Shown in pieces: positions 9,557-33,749 of a stretch of 64,000 nt of DNA (positions within the stretch are counted from its first letter, which is position 1; each line of letters starts with the position of its first letter). The DNA comes from a virus (taxonomy: Duplodnaviria; Caudoviricetes), in the IMG/VR virus record IMGVR_UViG_2974511964_000001, positions 64,001-128,000 of that record. One strand, written 5' to 3'. The notes beneath the pieces are model-generated. The model ran no database searches. It saw only the letters and a program-made list of their open reading frames with translations, and was not told where the DNA came from. The translations under genes were made by a program, and so were the position numbers.

Positions 9557-10063
9557 ATGGATTTAAAAGATACGACTATGGCAAACCTAGACGGTAAATT
9601 TATCGTCAATAACTACCCATCAGCGAGTGCTGATGTATACTTTGATGAGGGTGCAGGCCCAATTGTTTTGGCAGTTAAGTCAAACAAGGTTTATCAGGTA
9701 GGGTTAACTAAGAAAGACTTGCAAGATGTTACCAAGGGTAAGTTGATTGCTACTGTTGACGACAGTAAGAAGGAAATTTCATGGGTTCAATATCATCATA
9801 AGGACAACCTGTATGATACCTATAATGGTGTTAGGGTAAGCGGATATGATGGTGCTGATGCGGGTGTTCCTTTAATTCAGGCTATTGGCCTATTCTTTAA
9901 AGGAATCAATGTAACTGCTTATGACCCTTATATTCTAAGCTTAGACGAAATTCTAAATGCTGTTTATAATGCTGATGGTTCTAAGGCAGCTGCAACTACG
10001 ACAACCACAACTACTAAAAAGGTAGCCCCAACTACAACCACTACAACTACAGCGAGCAAATGA
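9557..10063 (+). CDS. Putative virion protein with poly-Thr C-terminus
   Basis: SD GAGGAG; tail AAATTTTTTTKKVAPTTTTTTTASK; position after the sigma factor, where relatives carry virion/Ig-like genes. Confidence 0.65.
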   Translation: MDLKDTTMANLDGKFIVNNYPSASADVYFDEGAGPIVLAVKSNKVYQVGLTKKDLQDVTKGKLIATVDDSKKEISWVQYHHKDNLYDTYNGVRVSGYDGADAGVPLIQAIGLFFKGINVTAYDPYILSLDEILNAVYNADGSKAAATTTTTTTKKVAPTTTTTTTASK

Positions 10064-10211
10064 TAACCCTGATGGGGGCCCATTTAAGATTTCTAAATCT
10101 TCTGTTTCGAGAGCATATATTAGCCCATCTTTAGTGGGCAGTGTAAAAACAACAGAAGGCTCAGCAACAATTAATGTCACACTAGAATAATTATTAAGGA
10201 GAGAATTGTTT

Positions 10212-10598
10212 ATGGCAACTAAATTTGATGTGTACAATGATAATGATACTTTAGTAGTATCTGCCCAAGAATCTCCGGTTACAGTAACTGGATTATCTCC
10301 AGATACCACATATACCGGTTGGTATGTAACGGTATCAGGACAAACTGCTAAGACTATTATTCCTGATTTCACAACTAAGTCATCTACTACGACAACTACA
10401 AGCACTACTTTAGATGTAACGACAACTACTAGTACAACTACTGTAAAACCAACTACTACAACTACCAGTACGACAACGGTAAAACCAACTACTACAACTA
10501 CTAGTACGACAACGGTAAAACCGACTACGACTACTACAACTAGTACGACAACGGTAAAACCAACTACGACTACTACTAGTACGACAACAGTAGCGTAA
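10212..10598 (+). CDS. Fn3/Ig-like domain plus mucin-like (TTTTTSTTTVKP)n protein, probably virion-associated
   Basis: VTVTGLSPDTTY Fn3-like motif followed by about 5 Thr-rich repeats. Confidence 0.75.
   Translation: MATKFDVYNDNDTLVVSAQESPVTVTGLSPDTTYTGWYVTVSGQTAKTIIPDFTTKSSTTTTTSTTLDVTTTTSTTTVKPTTTTTSTTTVKPTTTTTSTTTVKPTTTTTTSTTTVKPTTTTTSTTTVA
10415..10592 (+). repeat. Coding tandem repeat, 36-39 bp units encoding TTTTTSTTTVKP
   Basis: AGTACGACAACGGTAAAACC-type units with synonymous variation. Confidence 0.9.
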
Positions 10599-10602
10599 TT
10601 AA

Positions 10603-11490
10603 ATGAAGTATCTAACAAGCCAGAACGCAACTGTTAAGTTTAAATGGCAATTGTCCGTTTATATCACTAGTTTGTTAGAAATTGGGGTTAATCCCAATGA
10701 CATTGTAGTGCTGTTCTCGGACAGTGATAGCCATATTCCTAAATATATTAGGGACCATTACCATGTAGATGTACATGTGTATGAGGATAATCGAGAAGAC
10801 AAAAGCTATATTCCTAGTATAAAGCCTTACTTGGTTTATCGTTATTTAGATGAGAATCCTTCTGCTAGACTAGAGGATTATGTCTATACAGATTCTGATA
10901 TAATTATCAGGGAGCCACTTGATTTTAGTCTGCTACCAGCTGACTGTAAAAATTGGTATGGTTCAGATTGTGGTGGATACCTTGATATGGGATACCTAAG
11001 TTATGTTGATAATTCTGAAAAGATTATTAATGCTATGCTAGAAATAGTTGGAATTACAATTGATGATGTTAAGAGTATTGATGCTAATTGTATTGGTGCT
11101 CAATATATCCTATCAAACCCTAGTCCTGAATACTTTAAGAAAGTATATCAAGACTCTTACAAACTATACCACGCAACCACAAGGATTGAGTCTAATTTTC
11201 AAAATTGGGTAGCAGAGATGTATGCTACTTTATGGAATATGCCTCTATTTGGTATTAACCCCCATATTAGTGATGAGTTGGCCTTCACGTGGGGAACTGA
11301 TAGTGCAGAGACATTCAAAGAGAACAAGATTTATCATGATGCTGGAGTAGTTGATGGTAACCAAGGATTGTTCTACAAAGGTAATTATAATATGAGAGAG
11401 CCTTTTGATGATGATTTCAGTTTCATCAGCAAAGATAAAGCATCTTATTATTATACTCAGTATATTAAAGCAACTAAGCAATACTCATAA
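10603..11490 (+). CDS. GT-A fold glycosyltransferase, HPAT/SGT1 (GT95/GT96)-like
   Basis: DxD motif YTDSDII, SIKPY, IGAQYI, WVAEMYA and IYHDAG. Confidence 0.7.
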   Translation: MKYLTSQNATVKFKWQLSVYITSLLEIGVNPNDIVVLFSDSDSHIPKYIRDHYHVDVHVYEDNREDKSYIPSIKPYLVYRYLDENPSARLEDYVYTDSDIIIREPLDFSLLPADCKNWYGSDCGGYLDMGYLSYVDNSEKIINAMLEIVGITIDDVKSIDANCIGAQYILSNPSPEYFKKVYQDSYKLYHATTRIESNFQNWVAEMYATLWNMPLFGINPHISDELAFTWGTDSAETFKENKIYHDAGVVDGNQGLFYKGNYNMREPFDDDFSFISKDKASYYYTQYIKATKQYS

Positions 11491-11491
11491 T

Positions 11492-11518
11492 AGGCCACCT
11501 TCAATAGGTGGCCTTTTT
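11492..11518 (+). terminator. Intrinsic terminator
   Basis: AGGCCACCT-loop-AGGTGGCCT followed by a T-run. Confidence 0.9.
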
Positions 11519-11564: not shown

Positions 11565-13271
11565 ATGGCATATTATGATAAGGAAACAAGCGATGAATTG
11601 AAAGATAAATTTAAAGATTTAGCTAAGCCAAATGGAGCAGATTTTTCAGGGCTCATAGACTACTTTGACAAAGGATTACAGGGTATGGATGACAAAGGCG
11701 ACAAAGGCGATACAGCGGTTATTGGTGAAAATTCAGTAAATACCATTAATTTAGTTGATAAAGCATCCACATATGCAAAAAGAACCGTGCTTGGCAATAT
11801 CACATCAGTTAATTGCACAAAAAAACCAGCTAATTACGATACGGCAGCAGGGACTTTAACCATTTATAAAGGTACGATTGTTACTCACGGCAAGGGAAAT
11901 TTCGAAACTTCAGCAGATGTTGTTTTAGATGTGATTGGTACTGGAAGCCGACAAAAAAAAATAATGTTTGACACAATAACTAATACTTTTTTTGCTTTAC
12001 CTTATAATGATTATACAAGCGTGAATGATGAAAATTGTTTGTTTTTAGGAACTGTTAATAGCTATCCAGATAACCAAACAATAAACTTGGTTTTCGATTG
12101 CACAATTGACGGCATTTATCCTACAGTTTCAAAAGAGAAATCAATACCGACAAAGAGTTTAAATATAAATTCAAGAGTTTCACGTATTATTTTAAACTCA
12201 AACGGTCAATTCCCTAATATGGATACGTCTAATAGAACATTAACTTTTTACAATGATACTATTTTGGTTTTGTCAACTGGTGAATATTATATTTTGCCTG
12301 AGACAGTTGTGGACTTAACTATTGACCCGTCCAGTGCTTTAAAAATATATTATGACACTTTCAACAAGGTTTTTACGGTAAGAGCCTATGGAAAACTAGT
12401 AAACGAAGATAATTGGATATTCGTTTGTGCGGTTAGAACATCTATTGGAGCATTATCTATCCCTTGTGCATACAACGTAAACGGAAAGCCTTTTGGACTT
12501 ACGATTCCTGATAGTGTAGTTAAGAATCCTCTAAATGCTCATGTTAAAGCAGTTTTACACAGAGGATATAACACGGTAGCACCAGAAAACACTATTCCTG
12601 CATACGAGTTAGCCAAAAAAATGGGTTTTAGTTATGTTGAAACAGATGTTAAATGGACGAGTGATGGCGTACCCATCTTACTACATGACGGCACGGTAGA
12701 CCGCACGTCTGACGGAACAGGAGCAATCGCTGATTTAACTTTTAGTTATGCGCGTTCGTTGGATTTCGGAAGCTGGAAAGGTAGTGAGTATGTAGGAACA
12801 TTAATTCCCACTTTTGAAGAATTTATTTTGAGTTGTAAAAAATTAAACTTGCATCCTTATATTCACATCAATGAACTTGTGACAGTTGAAAAAGCACAGG
12901 AATTAGTCGGTATAGTTAGAAAACAAGGAATGATAAGAAATGTATCGTGGATAAGTTTTACCACTGCCGCATTAACAAATATTTGTACAGCGTACCCAAA
13001 ATCGAGAATAGGCATGTTGTCGGGTACTTTTGATGGGACTATCTTAGATGATGCGAGAGCGTTAAAAACAACTGAAAACGATGTTTTCCTAGATGTAGAC
13101 ACTCCAGCATTAACAAAAGAAATGATTGAAGCTGCTTTATCGGAAGACATCTACGTAGAAACATATACGGTGGATTATAGTAATCTTGTGGAAGGTTATG
13201 TAAATATGGGGGTTAGTGGTATCACTACGAATAGCCTAAATATTGCCGAGATACTAGGCAACACATATTAA
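11565..13271 (+). CDS. Glycerophosphodiester phosphodiesterase (GDPD)-domain protein with tail-fibre-like N-terminus
   Basis: HRGY..APENT, VETDV, LLHDGTVDRT, GITTN; N-terminal LKDKF...P...DF..LID and DKGDKGD. Confidence 0.85.
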   Translation: MAYYDKETSDELKDKFKDLAKPNGADFSGLIDYFDKGLQGMDDKGDKGDTAVIGENSVNTINLVDKASTYAKRTVLGNITSVNCTKKPANYDTAAGTLTIYKGTIVTHGKGNFETSADVVLDVIGTGSRQKKIMFDTITNTFFALPYNDYTSVNDENCLFLGTVNSYPDNQTINLVFDCTIDGIYPTVSKEKSIPTKSLNINSRVSRIILNSNGQFPNMDTSNRTLTFYNDTILVLSTGEYYILPETVVDLTIDPSSALKIYYDTFNKVFTVRAYGKLVNEDNWIFVCAVRTSIGALSIPCAYNVNGKPFGLTIPDSVVKNPLNAHVKAVLHRGYNTVAPENTIPAYELAKKMGFSYVETDVKWTSDGVPILLHDGTVDRTSDGTGAIADLTFSYARSLDFGSWKGSEYVGTLIPTFEEFILSCKKLNLHPYIHINELVTVEKAQELVGIVRKQGMIRNVSWISFTTAALTNICTAYPKSRIGMLSGTFDGTILDDARALKTTENDVFLDVDTPALTKEMIEAALSEDIYVETYTVDYSNLVEGYVNMGVSGITTNSLNIAEILGNTY

Positions 13272-13968: not shown

Positions 13969-14534
13969 GTACAGTTAAAGCAGGAGTAGTAATGATAAAT
14001 TCTAATCCTTACTATTATGTGGAGGAAATTAGTGTACAAGGTGCCAGTGTTCCCTATTTAGCAGTTTATGAAATTAGTAAGGAGTCTTTGTCTCAATATG
14101 CCATAAGTAAAGACCTATCAGTGATATATAAGAAAGTTGTTCATCGTCAGGTTGACAAAACTAGAGTTATTGGCCTAACAAAATTATCAAAGTTAGTTAC
14201 TAAGGGTAAAGATAAGATTACTGAAAAGCATACACAAACTCTGGTAGCAAAACCTCTTTTCCTAGCAGAGGAAGAACCCGGAATTGATTCATTTACTAAT
14301 GAATATGGAATGGGATTTATGGAATACGTGAAGAACCCCGATGAAATTCTAAGAGCAAACATAAGTAATCAAAAAGATATGCCACCAGCAACAGTTCCTA
14401 CTGGAGTATTTATCAGTGTAAAGCATATTGCATGGCAGAAGCAGTATATTCCAATTGCAGGACTAGTTGGCTATCTGTCCGATTTAATTGATAATACTTT
14501 TGGGATGCCTTCAATTGATGTATTTGGGGGCTAG
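13956..14534 (+). CDS. Conserved hypothetical protein
   Basis: Overlapping ORF in an operon. Confidence 0.7.
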   Translation: MAEISTVKAGVVMINSNPYYYVEEISVQGASVPYLAVYEISKESLSQYAISKDLSVIYKKVVHRQVDKTRVIGLTKLSKLVTKGKDKITEKHTQTLVAKPLFLAEEEPGIDSFTNEYGMGFMEYVKNPDEILRANISNQKDMPPATVPTGVFISVKHIAWQKQYIPIAGLVGYLSDLIDNTFGMPSIDVFGG

Positions 14535-14537
14535 CTT

Positions 14538-15308
14538 ATGGCTCGTATTATGGAAGATGACGTCAAACAAGCTATTCTTAGCAACCGTCATTTGTTATCT
14601 GGATTAGGTGATTTAGGAGATACCAAAGTTATATTTGAAAAGGGCATGAATTATGGTAACTTAATAGCTGATGCTATTGCTTTTACTCAAAAACAAGGAA
14701 TCATTGGTTACGAGATTAAGACAGAGTATGACACGTTAAAAAGACTGCCAAAACAGTTGGATAGCTATGTTAGAGTATGCAACTATGTTATTGTTTTCTG
14801 TCATGATTCTAAGTTAGAGGAAGTAGAAAAGCTATTGGCTAGTAAGAACTATCCATTTGTCGGAATCATTAGTTATTCAGAATTTAATGATGATATCATT
14901 ACTGGTATGTATCGGGCTCCTCAAATTAACCCTTTATTTAAGATGAAAGCCTGCCTGTCGATGCTTTGGAAAAACGAAATATATGCCATTTTGTCGGCCT
15001 ATGTTAATCATCCGAGCAACGTGGTTAAGAATACCTATAATGAGAAGGCTACTAATGTTCATACAGCTATGCTAAGTAGAAATTCTCAGTATGGCGTGTT
15101 AAGGCGTGATATGACTAAGAGAGCAATGATTTCACTGTACGATAACCTGATTCCAGAGAATGAAGGTATCCGAATTATTTGTGAGATGTTTATCACTGAA
15201 AAGTTTGACCCTAATAAAAATTTACAGTTATACAATTATGGTGACCAGTTCACCCATGATGTAACCTTTAAAGATGGCTACAATAAGCATAACAGGAGAA
15301 GACACTAA
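14538..15308 (+). CDS. PD-(D/E)xK nuclease-like protein (sce7726/MmcB-like)
   Basis: IADAI...GYEIKTEYDTLKRLPKQLDSY. Confidence 0.7.
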   Translation: MARIMEDDVKQAILSNRHLLSGLGDLGDTKVIFEKGMNYGNLIADAIAFTQKQGIIGYEIKTEYDTLKRLPKQLDSYVRVCNYVIVFCHDSKLEEVEKLLASKNYPFVGIISYSEFNDDIITGMYRAPQINPLFKMKACLSMLWKNEIYAILSAYVNHPSNVVKNTYNEKATNVHTAMLSRNSQYGVLRRDMTKRAMISLYDNLIPENEGIRIICEMFITEKFDPNKNLQLYNYGDQFTHDVTFKDGYNKHNRRRH

Positions 15309-15326
15309 ATTGTCTTCTCTTTTTTA
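15296..15326 (+). terminator. Intrinsic terminator
   Basis: GAGAAGACA/TGTCTTCTC followed by a T-run. Confidence 0.85.
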
Positions 15327-15339
15327 TTTTAAATAAGTG

Positions 15340-15368
15340 TTGACATTGGTGTTATTGAACTGTATACT
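15340..15368 (+). promoter_or_regulatory. sigmaA-type promoter
   Basis: TTGACA-17-TATACT. Confidence 0.8.
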
Positions 15369-15401
15369 AAGCTTATTAAATAAAGGAAGAGGTAACATAA
15401 T

Positions 15402-17024
15402 ATGAAAAAATTTGATACCCAAAATAATAAGCGAGCATACATTGATTCATTGATTGAGCAACAAGACTACATTGACCCTAGGTACAATATTCATCTGTTT
15501 TCTAAGGAACGTGGTGTATACTCTGGGGTTGTTCGTTCGTTAGAGTCGCGTTCAGGCCAAGTAGACCGATTTAAGTATTACGGGTTTATTATTAACTTCC
15601 CAGAGACTTACTTTAGTTTAGAAGGTATCTCAGGTAAGAAATTAGCTAATAATGCTAAGAACTTAGGTGATGTATTTAGTAACTCCGAAGCTTTATCAGA
15701 ACAGGGGTTAAATATGCTAGTAGTTGTTGGTAATTGTCTGGCTAATATGGGTGATGAATACAGTGATAACTTAGGACGAGGCATCTATCGAGCAATTAAA
15801 AAATATCCAGCTTCTGAGCAAGTTTATATCAATTTTAAGGAACATACTAATTCTTACTTTATTCGTAGTGTACAATCATTAGATAATGCTAAGCACCGTG
15901 AATATATTAGTGCCAATGGAAATGATGAGGGCTATACTTTTAATCTACGTAAGGCGTGGGGAGTTAGTAAAGGTAACTTCAAGTTGCTAAAGGACATGGG
16001 ATACCGTGACGGTGTAGAGGTGTATGGTGACAGCAACAAGAACTTTAATCAACGGTTATCTTTACTACGATTAGCACGTACCTATGCTCATGAAGTAGAT
16101 GATGAACGAGGTTATCATGACGCCGATAAGTGGTTCAAAAGTTTATACGAGGAGTTCATGGATAATCCTTATAGGACGGTAGACCAGCACGACGATGATT
16201 TCTTCTGGTATAGTGTGCCTAATATTTATCAAGCTTCGATGTTAGCTACTAATGATAAACAAGCGTGGATGCATACGGTTAAATACTTTTATGGTAGCTT
16301 ATACCACCAACAAGCAATTGATAGCGTTAGAGGGGCTGGGCGCTTGTATCTAGACTATGCTGACTTAGTTAAAGATTTCGATAGTTGGGTGCGTTACCCT
16401 CGTTACTTAAAAGTAGCTCATGATATTGCTATTCGTAATACACATGCTTTACACAACTTTGAAGATAATCATGGTATTATCAATAAGTACCACAAGTATA
16501 ACCATCTTGAAGGCACTAATGGCGACTACAGCTTTATGCTAGCCTACGATGCGAAAGAAATTGTTGATGAAGGCCAACAACAAAGTAACTGTGTGGCAGG
16601 GTATGTTGATAGTGTTGCTACTGGTCAATCCTTGATTATGTTCTTACGTAAGGAGCAAGCTAAGTCATGGGTCACTATTGAACTACGTCAGAATAATGAT
16701 AATACGCTGACAATGTGTCAAGTGTTTGAACCATTTAATGCACCTTTGCATGATGAATCAAAACAGGCTTTACACGCATGGGCTAAGTTAAATAATATTA
16801 ATATTGCTAAGAGCATTGGTGGTTGCAGTGATACTACTGGATGGGATAAGCAGTATAAGAAGCAATTCCGTGTAATGCAACCTCTAGCTGATAGCCCTCG
16901 TATGGATAAGGTTAAAAAAGAGATGGCTGAATACCAGAAGCAAGTAGAAGCTAATAAGGACGAAAAGGCTAAGTTAACCAGTAAGTTTGAAGAAGTCAAT
17001 GCAAAAATTAAAAAAGCAGTTTAA
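15402..17024 (+). CDS. PcfJ-like domain protein
   Basis: YPRYLKVAHD...EGQQQSNCVAGY...IMFLRK...TIEL. Confidence 0.75.
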   Translation: MKKFDTQNNKRAYIDSLIEQQDYIDPRYNIHLFSKERGVYSGVVRSLESRSGQVDRFKYYGFIINFPETYFSLEGISGKKLANNAKNLGDVFSNSEALSEQGLNMLVVVGNCLANMGDEYSDNLGRGIYRAIKKYPASEQVYINFKEHTNSYFIRSVQSLDNAKHREYISANGNDEGYTFNLRKAWGVSKGNFKLLKDMGYRDGVEVYGDSNKNFNQRLSLLRLARTYAHEVDDERGYHDADKWFKSLYEEFMDNPYRTVDQHDDDFFWYSVPNIYQASMLATNDKQAWMHTVKYFYGSLYHQQAIDSVRGAGRLYLDYADLVKDFDSWVRYPRYLKVAHDIAIRNTHALHNFEDNHGIINKYHKYNHLEGTNGDYSFMLAYDAKEIVDEGQQQSNCVAGYVDSVATGQSLIMFLRKEQAKSWVTIELRQNNDNTLTMCQVFEPFNAPLHDESKQALHAWAKLNNINIAKSIGGCSDTTGWDKQYKKQFRVMQPLADSPRMDKVKKEMAEYQKQVEANKDEKAKLTSKFEEVNAKIKKAV

Positions 17025-25305: not shown

Positions 25306-25494
25306 ATGAGCTGGTTTAATAGAAATAAAAATTGTCCGTATTGTACTCAAACAATGCCTTTTATGAGTAGGGAAGGGATTGAGTTGAGGATTGTATATGG
25401 TAACCAACTATTTACAAGTTATGAAAGTAAACAGATTAATATCACTATTAACTATTGCCCAATGTGTGGTAGAAAGCTGATGGGAGTTAAATAA
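25306..25494 (+). CDS. Small zinc-finger protein
   Basis: CPYC...INYCPMCGRKL. Confidence 0.7.
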   Translation: MSWFNRNKNCPYCTQTMPFMSREGIELRIVYGNQLFTSYESKQINITINYCPMCGRKLMGVK

Positions 25495-25880
25495 TGGAAC
25501 AGCTAGATTTATTTGATACAACAACTAGTACAACTACTAAGAAGGTTACCCGTAAGCGTAAACGTAAGGTTAAGGTAACCACTACCACCACCACTACCAC
25601 TACACAGCCTATCAACCAGCTACTTGTTGATGAAGAGTCAAAGCTAAAAGAACTGTTATCTCAGCCCAAACAATTCGATGCTCTGAGAGGGGCTATAAGC
25701 TGGTTTAAGTCCAAACAGTATACTTGGTACTGTAACACGGTAGAACGTCCTGAGCGAGCTCTGAGGGGTCTTCAAAGCCATTTGAACGTGTCTGACGATA
25801 AATTTTATAAGATGTTGCTTAATGACAAGGTAATGGTAGGGTTAGCAAAAGGAACCTATTTAGTTTATTATAAAAAATGA
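25494..25880 (+). CDS. Hypothetical protein with Thr/Lys-rich N-terminus
   Basis: TTTSTTTKKVTRKRKRKVKVTTTTTTTTT. Confidence 0.7.
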   Translation: MEQLDLFDTTTSTTTKKVTRKRKRKVKVTTTTTTTTTQPINQLLVDEESKLKELLSQPKQFDALRGAISWFKSKQYTWYCNTVERPERALRGLQSHLNVSDDKFYKMLLNDKVMVGLAKGTYLVYYKK

Positions 25881-33312: not shown

Positions 33313-33362
33313 CGTTATATTATTAGAAGAAGAAAACATTACAAGAAAGTAGGAATTTCATC

Positions 33363-33749
33363 ATGGGATATATTCGTAAAGAAGCAGTTGAAAAGGTTCT
33401 TAAGGCACACTCTAATGATAAGGGATTTATGAACTTGTTAGAACTTGTTAGAAAAGGTAAAAATACTAACACGTTACCTCACCCAAGATTCTCTGTTAGA
33501 GACTTAAATAAGGAAATTGTTGACCTAGTAGTAGAATTTGCACAAGACGGTAAATCACTTAATGTATACGAAGAAAGTCGAGGGTCACGTAGTTTCATTT
33601 ACCAGTTTCCCATTGAGGGAATTATTTCCAACAAGACGACAACAGCTACAACAACGACTAAAAAAGTGGTATCAACAACTACTACAACCAAGAAAGTAGT
33701 ACGTAAACGCCGTACAACCACTAAGACAACCACTAAGTCACCTAAATAA
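33363..33749 (+). CDS. Hypothetical protein with Thr/Lys-rich tail
   Basis: TTTATTTTKKVVSTTTTTKKVVRKRRTTT. Confidence 0.75.
   Translation: MGYIRKEAVEKVLKAHSNDKGFMNLLELVRKGKNTNTLPHPRFSVRDLNKEIVDLVVEFAQDGKSLNVYEESRGSRSFIYQFPIEGIISNKTTTATTTTKKVVSTTTTTKKVVRKRRTTTKTTTKSPK

Follow-up and report, generated by a model that had tools for sequence, protein, structure and literature searches.

The locus described here raises the question of whether a phage can glycosylate its own particle with one small enzyme encoded beside the enzyme's substrates. It lies in a 64,000-nucleotide stretch of viral DNA (Caudoviricetes; positions 64,001 to 128,000 of IMG/VR record IMGVR_UViG_2974511964_000001), hereafter the window, which is part of a 137,973-bp genome record and is 90-96% identical at the nucleotide level to the Lactobacillus plantarum myophages Semele, Lpa804 and Bacchae. 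Three co-oriented genes on the plus strand, which we call A, B and C, encode a protein that ends in a poly-threonine tag (A), a small protein with mucin-like Thr-rich repeats (B), and a putative glycosyltransferase (GT; C). An earlier reading of the letters alone (the original prediction) had proposed that this phage builds glycosylated 'phage mucins' on its particle, and the sequence features that it named are all present where it had placed them. On comparative-genomic grounds, we consider it probable (roughly 0.7) that A-B-C is a late, self-contained virion O-glycosylation module in which C acts on poly-Thr tags.

The evidence that carries this reading is the company that C-type genes keep. 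A tblastn search with C returned 72 phage records, whose hosts include Enterococcus, Lactobacillus, Staphylococcus, Lactococcus, Clostridium, Arcanobacterium and Chryseobacterium. Wherever annotation was available, the C gene stood in a late structural operon directly past a capsid, tail-tube or small decoration gene, and the gap that separates it from the tagged capsid or tail gene was 0-60 nt. The tail-tube protein of phage phiFL1A, for instance, ends ...TTTTTSTTTTTTSSTTTTTTTQASSK; the capsid protein of iLp84 ends ...PTTTTTTTSK, and a 125-aa protein at the same locus has (T6-7 VKP)n; and in phage 1706 both a capsid-protease fusion and the major structural protein end in T9-10 HHD. Searching IMG/VR (2.9 million contigs) with the signature motif of the C family alone recovered at least 599 stretches, 595 of which encode a C relative.

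We fetched 80 IMG/VR loci by the signature motif and scanned 92 C-positive loci altogether for tracts (a run of at least 6 Thr/Ser, at least 5 of them Thr). Such a tract was found in all but one (91/92), always on the same strand as C and mostly 1-5 residues from the C-terminus, and the pattern persisted after dereplication at 70% GT identity (25/26 clusters). LP65 was the exception; in its A and B homologues the repeats read TTTETQTQTQ. The tag carriers are non-homologous, including major head proteins (phrog_544, phrog_29, phrog_10), a protease-capsid fusion (phrog_3270) and major tail proteins (phrog_238, phrog_88, phrog_820, phrog_1407), so that four major-head and at least four major-tail families are represented. 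The association of enzyme and tag is near-obligatory and reciprocal, and it extends across unrelated capsid, tail-tube, sheath and decoration proteins; co-occurrence of the GT with Thr-rich neighbours was one of the checks that the original prediction had proposed. We also observed metagenomic phages (L130:3207-9413, L148:7135-12111, L175:1965-3878 and L104:1145-2818) where the gene before C encodes a very large virion protein or an extended tail-tube protein, and where the tracts of eight or more Thr (Thr8+) form internal linkers between domains rather than C-terminal tails.

The converse case was provided by five phages without the enzyme. P1, Maenad, Lenus, SHEF2 and 3-521 all keep B homologues, and the myophage 3-521 keeps an A homologue as well, with both genes in the equivalent position after the sigma-factor gene. 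A C profile search of these five whole records found no C, while recovering the positive controls (5/5, including the most divergent). No poly-Thr was present on their A or B homologues, capsid proteins or tail-tube proteins, and the B homologues have a second fn3 domain or a short end in place of the Thr repeats. In 3-521, which has no C, the A and B homologues share a near-identical 20-residue end (L096:3467-4495; ...TVG[TS]VTTTATTATI[SP]L.), which may be an anchoring or oligomerisation strand or the remnant of a tag.

A second comparison used bacterial genomes. With a degenerate DNA pattern for QxWxAEMW, we collected 80 loci from species-representative genomes, in which chance matches to the pattern served as negative controls. 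A true C homologue was encoded in 16 of these loci, from genera including Salinicoccus, Trichococcus, Lentibacillus, Lacticaseibacillus and Latilactobacillus, from S. aureus, and further from Gracilibacillus, Listeria, Anaerorhabdus and Arachidicoccus. Tags accompanied C in 11 of the 16, compared with 1 of the 64 C-negative loci (Fisher p 4.7e-9), and four of the five untagged C-positive loci were truncated at the gene in question. Together, the association, the GT-less phages and the bacterial set lend strong comparative support to the proposal that a phage GT would act on Thr-rich virion proteins.

Finally, we reversed the search and started from the tag. We sampled 80 viral loci with a run of nine ACN codons, and in 67 of them the run codes in frame for a Thr8+ tract. 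Of these 67 loci, 5 have C, in every case as the gene next downstream of the tagged one, whose product is either a tail-tube protein or a large structural protein of the virion. Compared with the frequency of its family in the collection, C is greatly enriched in this sample.

Next, we asked what kind of enzyme C is. It matched phrog_4417, a family without known function, almost end to end (E 6.5e-134, residues 1-292 of 293 profile positions), but no Pfam family and no Pfam GT at E<=1. An exhaustive HMMER search gathered 716 cluster representatives (clusters at 50% identity) at E<=1e-3; those relatives listed with source names were all 'hypothetical', and none had a Pfam domain. In an alignment of 80 relatives, Y69, D99, Y131, G165, M206, H245, G248 and K259 were invariant and D97, Q200 and W202 nearly so (at least 90%), so that a DxD motif, a family signature around W202 and a histidine in the C-terminal part stand out. 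From the fold match described below, H245 is a candidate counterpart of the metal-ligand histidine that GT8 enzymes such as LgtC and glycogenin possess.

The AlphaFold2 (AF2) model of C is a single globular domain from residue 1 onwards, with a predicted local distance difference test score (pLDDT) of 97.5 and a predicted template-modelling score (pTM) of 0.94. Foldseek matched it at E ~1e-7 to PDB entries for the WbbM C-terminal domain, the UGGT catalytic domain, LgtC and glycogenin. An exhaustive structural scan (VIA-align) likewise ranked glycogenin (Z 15.6), Skp1 alpha-galactosyltransferase (15.3), LgtC (14.9), WbbM (14.6), GlyE of the pneumococcal serine-rich-repeat pathway (14.4) and UGGT (14.4) at the top, with root-mean-square deviations of 3.3-4.0 A over 209-240 aligned residues at 9-12% sequence identity; A64R, which glycosylates the PBCV-1 capsid, followed at Z 11.3. 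Glycogenin, Skp1 alpha-galactosyltransferase, GlyE, UGGT and A64R are all protein-glycosylating enzymes. In a viral structure library, the members of the C family were uncharacterised, and the next neighbours were viral GT8-like enzymes. A search of the C profile against PDB chain sequences gave only spurious matches to TAL-effector repeats, which we discarded.

No transmembrane segment was found in C, the highest 19-residue Kyte-Doolittle mean being 1.2. The structural comparison of 10603-11490 places C among GT-A glycosyltransferases, closest to the retaining GT8/GT24 enzymes, in keeping with the original call of a DxD glycosyltransferase. We predict that C is a soluble, metal-dependent Leloir-type glycosyltransferase with a GT-A fold and a GT8/GT24-like architecture, and it would presumably retain the configuration of the donor sugar, since its fold resembles GT8/GT24. 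The genome has one copy of C, and we found no GT2 or GT1/GT4 Pfam domain elsewhere in it. Some longer C relatives (P0087, P0104, P0071, P0058 and P0152) are fusions with GT2/Glyco_transf_7C, with radical-SAM and SPASM domains, or with an N-terminal methyltransferase, which suggests more elaborate modifications or glycans in some phages. A fragment of a C homologue (E 5e-56) was also seen on a 1196-bp contig (L265) of a metagenome-assembled genome labelled Poseidonia sp., a marine archaeon; this is probably a viral contig or a binning artefact.

The original prediction had also assigned C to the plant and algal peptide O-glycosyltransferases HPAT (GT95) and SGT1 (GT96), and this part stood only as a possible remote relationship. 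C itself did not match the HPAT family of Pfam (PF23452) at E<=1, and a six-frame search of the whole phage genome with PF23452 found nothing at E<=10, as was also the case for the control genomes. Nevertheless, PF23452 was the sole GT family matched by any C relative (2/80, below threshold, best E 1.3e-4). The ESM Atlas neighbours of C include a Chlorophyta cluster with PF23452 in 99% of its members (TM-score 0.76 by query) and two viral clusters with PF23452 in 10% of members. For GT95 a GT-A-like fold has been predicted (PMC8476585), and GT96 is a relative of that family (PMC8012813). Kinship of C with HPAT/SGT1 is therefore possible, though remote at best. The HPAT and SGT1 enzymes resemble the role proposed for C in acting on hydroxy-amino-acid repeats of extended, mucin-like proteins, but they have a type II membrane anchor and work in the Golgi on hydroxyproline or serine, whereas C is anchorless, would be expected in the bacterial cytoplasm and has Thr as its predicted acceptor.

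The closest solved folds are instead those of GT8/GT24 (glycogenin, LgtC, Skp1 alpha-galactosyltransferase, GlyE and UGGT), which share their fold with nearly the whole of C and place a DxD past the equivalent strand; the conserved histidine in the C-terminal part of C may correspond to theirs. By sequence, C is not a member of GT8, as it does not match PF01501 at E<=1. H245, G248 and K259 of C are invariant, with a spacing that differs from the GT8 H-x-x-G-x-x-K. The Q-x-W-x-A-E-M signature is specific to the C family, and the predicted acceptor of C is a homopolymeric Thr tract.

We then considered the predicted substrates. Protein A (phrog_21586, E 2e-82) has a globular domain of ~140 aa followed by a C-terminal tail that ends ...AAATTTTTTTKKVAPTTTTTTTASK. 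The length of the tag differs by indels between close relatives while the globular domain is conserved, and residues 139-168 are predicted to be disordered (AF2 pLDDT <50). The AF2 model of A, built from 10 shallow homologues, had low confidence (pLDDT 54.5), and a structural Atlas lookup for A returned nothing. That A is a virion protein, as the original prediction had it, holds through its homologues. A is 33% identical (E 2e-17) to LP65 orf51, which GenBank labels 'structural protein 2-D,MS'. The 3-521 homologue (ORF106) was detected in CsCl-purified virions with 7 peptides and 62% coverage, as was the small B-like ORF108 (PMC6563214, Table 4), where we assume that the ORF numbers of that table equal the 3-521 locus tags. 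We therefore regard A as a predicted virion protein and a predicted glycosylation substrate.

Protein B combines a short Fn3-like N-terminal domain (~55 aa) with a mucin-like Thr-rich region, and 59 of its 128 residues are Thr (46%). The Fn3-like label of the original prediction is confirmed in part: homologues of B in other phages are annotated as fn3 and have a full second domain, and the match of B itself to Pfam fn3 (residues 7-45) fell below threshold (E 0.0018; 18.9 bits against a cut-off of 25). The repeat has a 36-nt period with 4.7 copies and 86% matches (Tandem Repeats Finder), and its copy number varies from 3 to 5 units across related phages. Pairwise comparison of the full repeat units gave 26 synonymous and 3 non-synonymous codon differences, the latter all explained by the offset of a one-codon indel. 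Each of the four Thr codons occurs. The synonymous variation noted in the original prediction is thus confirmed, and together with the mixed Thr codons it indicates that selection acts on the peptide and not on a DNA repeat; we accordingly rejected the tracts as DNA-level simple repeats. Such tracts are well beyond what chance would give in this phage: only 7 ORFs in the whole genome have a run of at least 5 Thr/Ser, and B is the most Thr-rich ORF (44%, compared with 16% for the next).

B matched phrog_14018/341, which are labelled 'major tail protein'. We rejected this function, as the true tail-tube genes are at other places in the genome and the homologues of B stand behind the capsid gene; in the siphophages P1, Maenad, Lenus and SHEF2 they come directly after the major capsid gene, which by gene order is the usual position of a head-decoration gene. 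The PHROG label is probably a propagated misnomer. In phage LpeD (MF787246.1), the depositors annotated the B homologue as 'glycoprotein'; we found no supporting data, and the depositors may have been guided by a resemblance to Thr-rich glycoproteins of eukaryotes or viruses.

A further carrier lies outside the window. The tail sheath of the phage (L097, phrog_279, 615 aa, genome positions 14130-15974) is rich in Thr/Ser at its C-terminus and also contains a loop insertion, ...VGTTTTTTTTVTAG, in which eight Thr stand in a row at residue 296. The GT-positive Bacchae and Lpa804 keep this loop, LP65 has a Thr/Ser-rich version, and the GT-less 3-521 lacks it, which makes the sheath a likely additional substrate of C.

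These results suggest the following scheme. Late in infection, A and B would be made in bulk and C at a low level, probably through translational coupling to B. C would take a nucleotide-sugar from the host and, using its DxD motif and a metal site that probably includes the histidine, glycosylate the Thr hydroxyls of the tags, which are disordered, exposed at the surface and mostly C-terminal. This would take place in the cytoplasm, either ahead of particle assembly or in the course of it. In the present phage the substrates would be the tails of A and B and probably the Thr8 loop of the sheath, and the product would be particles with short, mucin-like glycopeptide brushes on head and tail. 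Such a coat could protect against proteases and antibodies, confer colloidal stability, promote adhesion to polysaccharide matrices or mask the particle from host sensors. The roles named in the original prediction (shielding, mucus binding, adsorption) are likewise candidates. What has been shown are the genes, motifs, fold, terminator, family size and the association of enzyme with tag; we infer Thr as the acceptor, the sugar, the retaining mechanism, the low level of C and the benefit to the phage (shielding, stability, adhesion).

Several observations weigh against virion O-glycosylation by C. We know of no mass shift, glycan stain or activity for any member of the family or any tagged protein, and the proteome of the close relative Dionysus (four virion proteins and twelve 'peg'-numbered others) is too shallow to show A or B. 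The assignment of activity and donor comes from fold and motifs, as C matches no curated GT family by sequence; in hhalign, the alignment of the C family against five bacterial GT8 proteins reached only 8.8% probability over 91 columns, despite setting D97-x-D99 on their DxD. Nor did we find sugar-activation genes or a second GT in the phage genome, and the glycan, if any, may therefore be a single sugar. The link between tag and enzyme also has gaps. The fifth untagged C-positive bacterial locus is complete and has only a degenerate ...TTPATTAG tail, on the upstream protein. In the reverse test, C was absent from the fetched stretch for 62 of the 67 Thr8+ tracts. Poly-Thr tracts thus extend far beyond the C family, for example to giant viruses and to other phages, and the tag does not strictly need the C enzyme. 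Lastly, the GT-A fold also houses nucleotidyl- and phosphotransferases, which match C at Z 9-10.

This last point opens the best-surviving alternative, that C moves a sugar-phosphate, glycerol-phosphate or nucleotide onto the tags, which would then be phospho-glycosylated or otherwise decorated and not plainly O-glycosylated. GNPTAB, CpsY and nucleotidyltransferases have the GT-A fold in common with C, a glycerophosphodiester phosphodiesterase gene comes immediately after the terminator, and some C relatives are fused to radical-SAM/SPASM or methyltransferase domains. We nevertheless consider such a transfer improbable: the best structural matches are all Leloir glycosyltransferases and score well above the phospho- and nucleotidyltransferases, the DxD and probably the invariant histidine fit the metal site of GT8, and the GT2 fusions suggest glycan building.

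Somewhat less probable again is that C acts on wall teichoic acid, cell-wall polysaccharide, a lipid carrier or phage DNA, leaving the poly-Thr tails as unmodified hydrophilic spacers. Many phage GTs do modify host O-antigen, teichoic acid or phage DNA; the next gene encodes a teichoic-acid-type phosphodiesterase, and a glycan has been demonstrated on no tagged protein. A target of this kind, however, leaves unexplained why C sits inside late structural operons so close behind the tagged gene, why unrelated carriers have tags only where C is present, and why an unbiased sample of poly-Thr loci again yields C directly downstream of the tagged gene. C is also soluble, unlike the lipid-linked GTs of cell-wall synthesis. 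A third alternative has the tags modified by enzymes of the host (GtfA/GtfB form a general O-GlcNAc system in L. plantarum) or not at all, with C a catalytically inactive assembly factor or chaperone that binds poly-Thr. In its favour are the absence of activity data for C and the existence of tag-bearing phages without the C family. It is the least probable of these alternatives, as invariant DxD, His and Lys residues and a conserved signature over 716 cluster representatives indicate a conserved active site and the association spans hosts from Bacillota to Bacteroidota, which have no one common system.

The residues that follow the Thr run are often common to the tags of one phage (HHD/HHD, AAV/AAV, SHA/SHA, A/A; phages with shared suffixes include L009, L080, L082, L085 and L042). 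Suffixes were identical in 5 of 29 within-phage pairs, compared with 4% of between-phage pairs (permutation p 0.006), which fits either a recognition element or copying of tag DNA. A broader proposal, which we advance tentatively and hold to be somewhat doubtful, is that poly-Thr with a short phage-specific suffix constitutes a portable, genetically encodable O-glycosylation tag that one small soluble GT-A enzyme reads, that the pair was grafted by horizontal transfer onto unrelated capsid, tail-tube, sheath and decoration proteins in hundreds of Bacillota and Bacteroidota phages, and that C represents a prokaryotic-virus branch of the HPAT/SGT1 lineage. On this proposal, a widespread and undescribed way of making 'phage mucins' would come to light.

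Should O-glycosylation by C prove correct, sugar-coating of the particle would be common in phages of lactic acid bacteria, enterococci, staphylococci, listeriae and clostridia, among them dairy-spoilage phages and therapy candidates, and the coat would affect their stability, adhesion, immunogenicity and possibly host range. A large 'hypothetical' family would gain a function, and the poly-Thr tails of capsid and tail proteins would be explained. A soluble enzyme of 295 aa with a tag of 7-10 residues would also make a minimal cytoplasmic O-glycosylation tool for recombinant proteins and phage display.

To our knowledge, virion glycosylation has been proved experimentally in only a few mycobacteriophages. 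There it alters recognition by antibodies. Che8, Corndog and Myrna are reported to glycosylate capsid and tail-tube subunits with their own GTs (Freeman et al. 2023, Cell Host Microbe 31:1216, as cited in PMC12363180). The locus in the window resembles the Che8 type in pairing a phage-encoded GT with putative substrates among the phage's own virion proteins, to which it is tightly linked, and in the sharing of endings: the two Che8 substrates have a common type of C-terminus (...TGS, ...DGS), as tags here are often shared within a phage. It differs in that a search of the entire Che8 record with the C profile gave no match at E<=1, compared with 5/5 positive controls, that no Mycobacterium phage appeared in the tblastn search, and that the Che8 capsid and tail-tube proteins are without poly-Thr. 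Here, moreover, one small GT gene would suffice and lies beside its predicted substrates, and the hosts are Bacillota and some Bacteroidota. The principle would thus be that of the Che8 type, while enzyme family, tag and host range differ. The A64R enzyme of PBCV-1 is likewise a virus-encoded, soluble GT-A enzyme, with the capsid protein of the same virus as its substrate; in fold it is further from C than the GT8 enzymes are, and its virus has a eukaryotic host. PBCV-1 glycans are attached at specific sites of the folded capsid protein and not on a disordered homopolymer tag. In open-access literature text we found nothing relevant on poly-Thr phage tags, on the C enzyme family or on glycosylated virions of Gram-positive phages.

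The layout of the locus is summarised in Table 1. Its upstream neighbours are a UvsX/RecA-like gene and a phage sigma-factor gene. The original prediction had called A-B-C one transcription unit, and the co-orientation, the 4-nt gap between B and C and the terminator after C agree with this; a promoter could not be demonstrated, as a sigma-70 scan gave fewer sites than shuffled sequence and none was identifiable, which is unsurprising because the phage carries its own sigma factor. The ATG of B is preceded by AAGGAGAG, a good ribosome-binding site, and the start codon of C, 4 nt past the B stop, has no obvious Shine-Dalgarno sequence. We rejected as a gene a Val-rich minus-strand ORF (9953-10630, 225 aa), which merely mirrors the Thr codons in A and B.

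Table 1. Positions of the A, B and C genes, their motifs and further features (window coordinates; ORF, open reading frame).
Feature	Coordinates	Strand	Description
ORF A	9557-10063	+	168 aa
Poly-Thr tag of A	9995-10051	+	T7-KKVAP-T7, then ASK; three residues from C-terminus
ORF B	10212-10598	+	128 aa
Thr-rich repeat region of B	10380-10595	+	Residues 57-128; five TTTTTSTTTVKP-type units, end ...TSTTTVA
ORF C	10603-11490	+	295 aa
DxD motif of C (D97-S-D99)	10891-10899	+	After strand 92-96; predicted metal and nucleotide-sugar site
C family signature (Q200-N-W-V-A-E-M-Y207)	11200-11223	+	M206 invariant
His245 of C (H-D-A-G)	11335-11337	+	Invariant, with G248 and K259; candidate third metal ligand
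Intrinsic terminator	11492-11514	+	Closes the A-B-C unit; 9-bp stem, 6 GC pairs, 5-nt loop, then T-run TTTTTACT
Phosphodiesterase-domain gene	11565-13271	+	568 aa; C-terminal glycerophosphodiester phosphodiesterase domain (Pfam GDPD, E 2e-33)
Small basic protein (phrog_38737)	25491-25877	+	T9 near N-terminus
Small basic protein (phrog_34928)	33327-33746	+	STTTTT and TTTKTTTK near C-terminus

The gene directly past the terminator encodes the phosphodiesterase-domain protein mentioned above, whose relatives in PHROG bear the labels tail fibre or virion structural protein; its product is probably a virion-associated, teichoic-acid-degrading enzyme, expressed from a separate transcription unit. 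Two small basic proteins encoded further along the window also carry Thr runs, one near the N-terminus and the other near the C-terminus.

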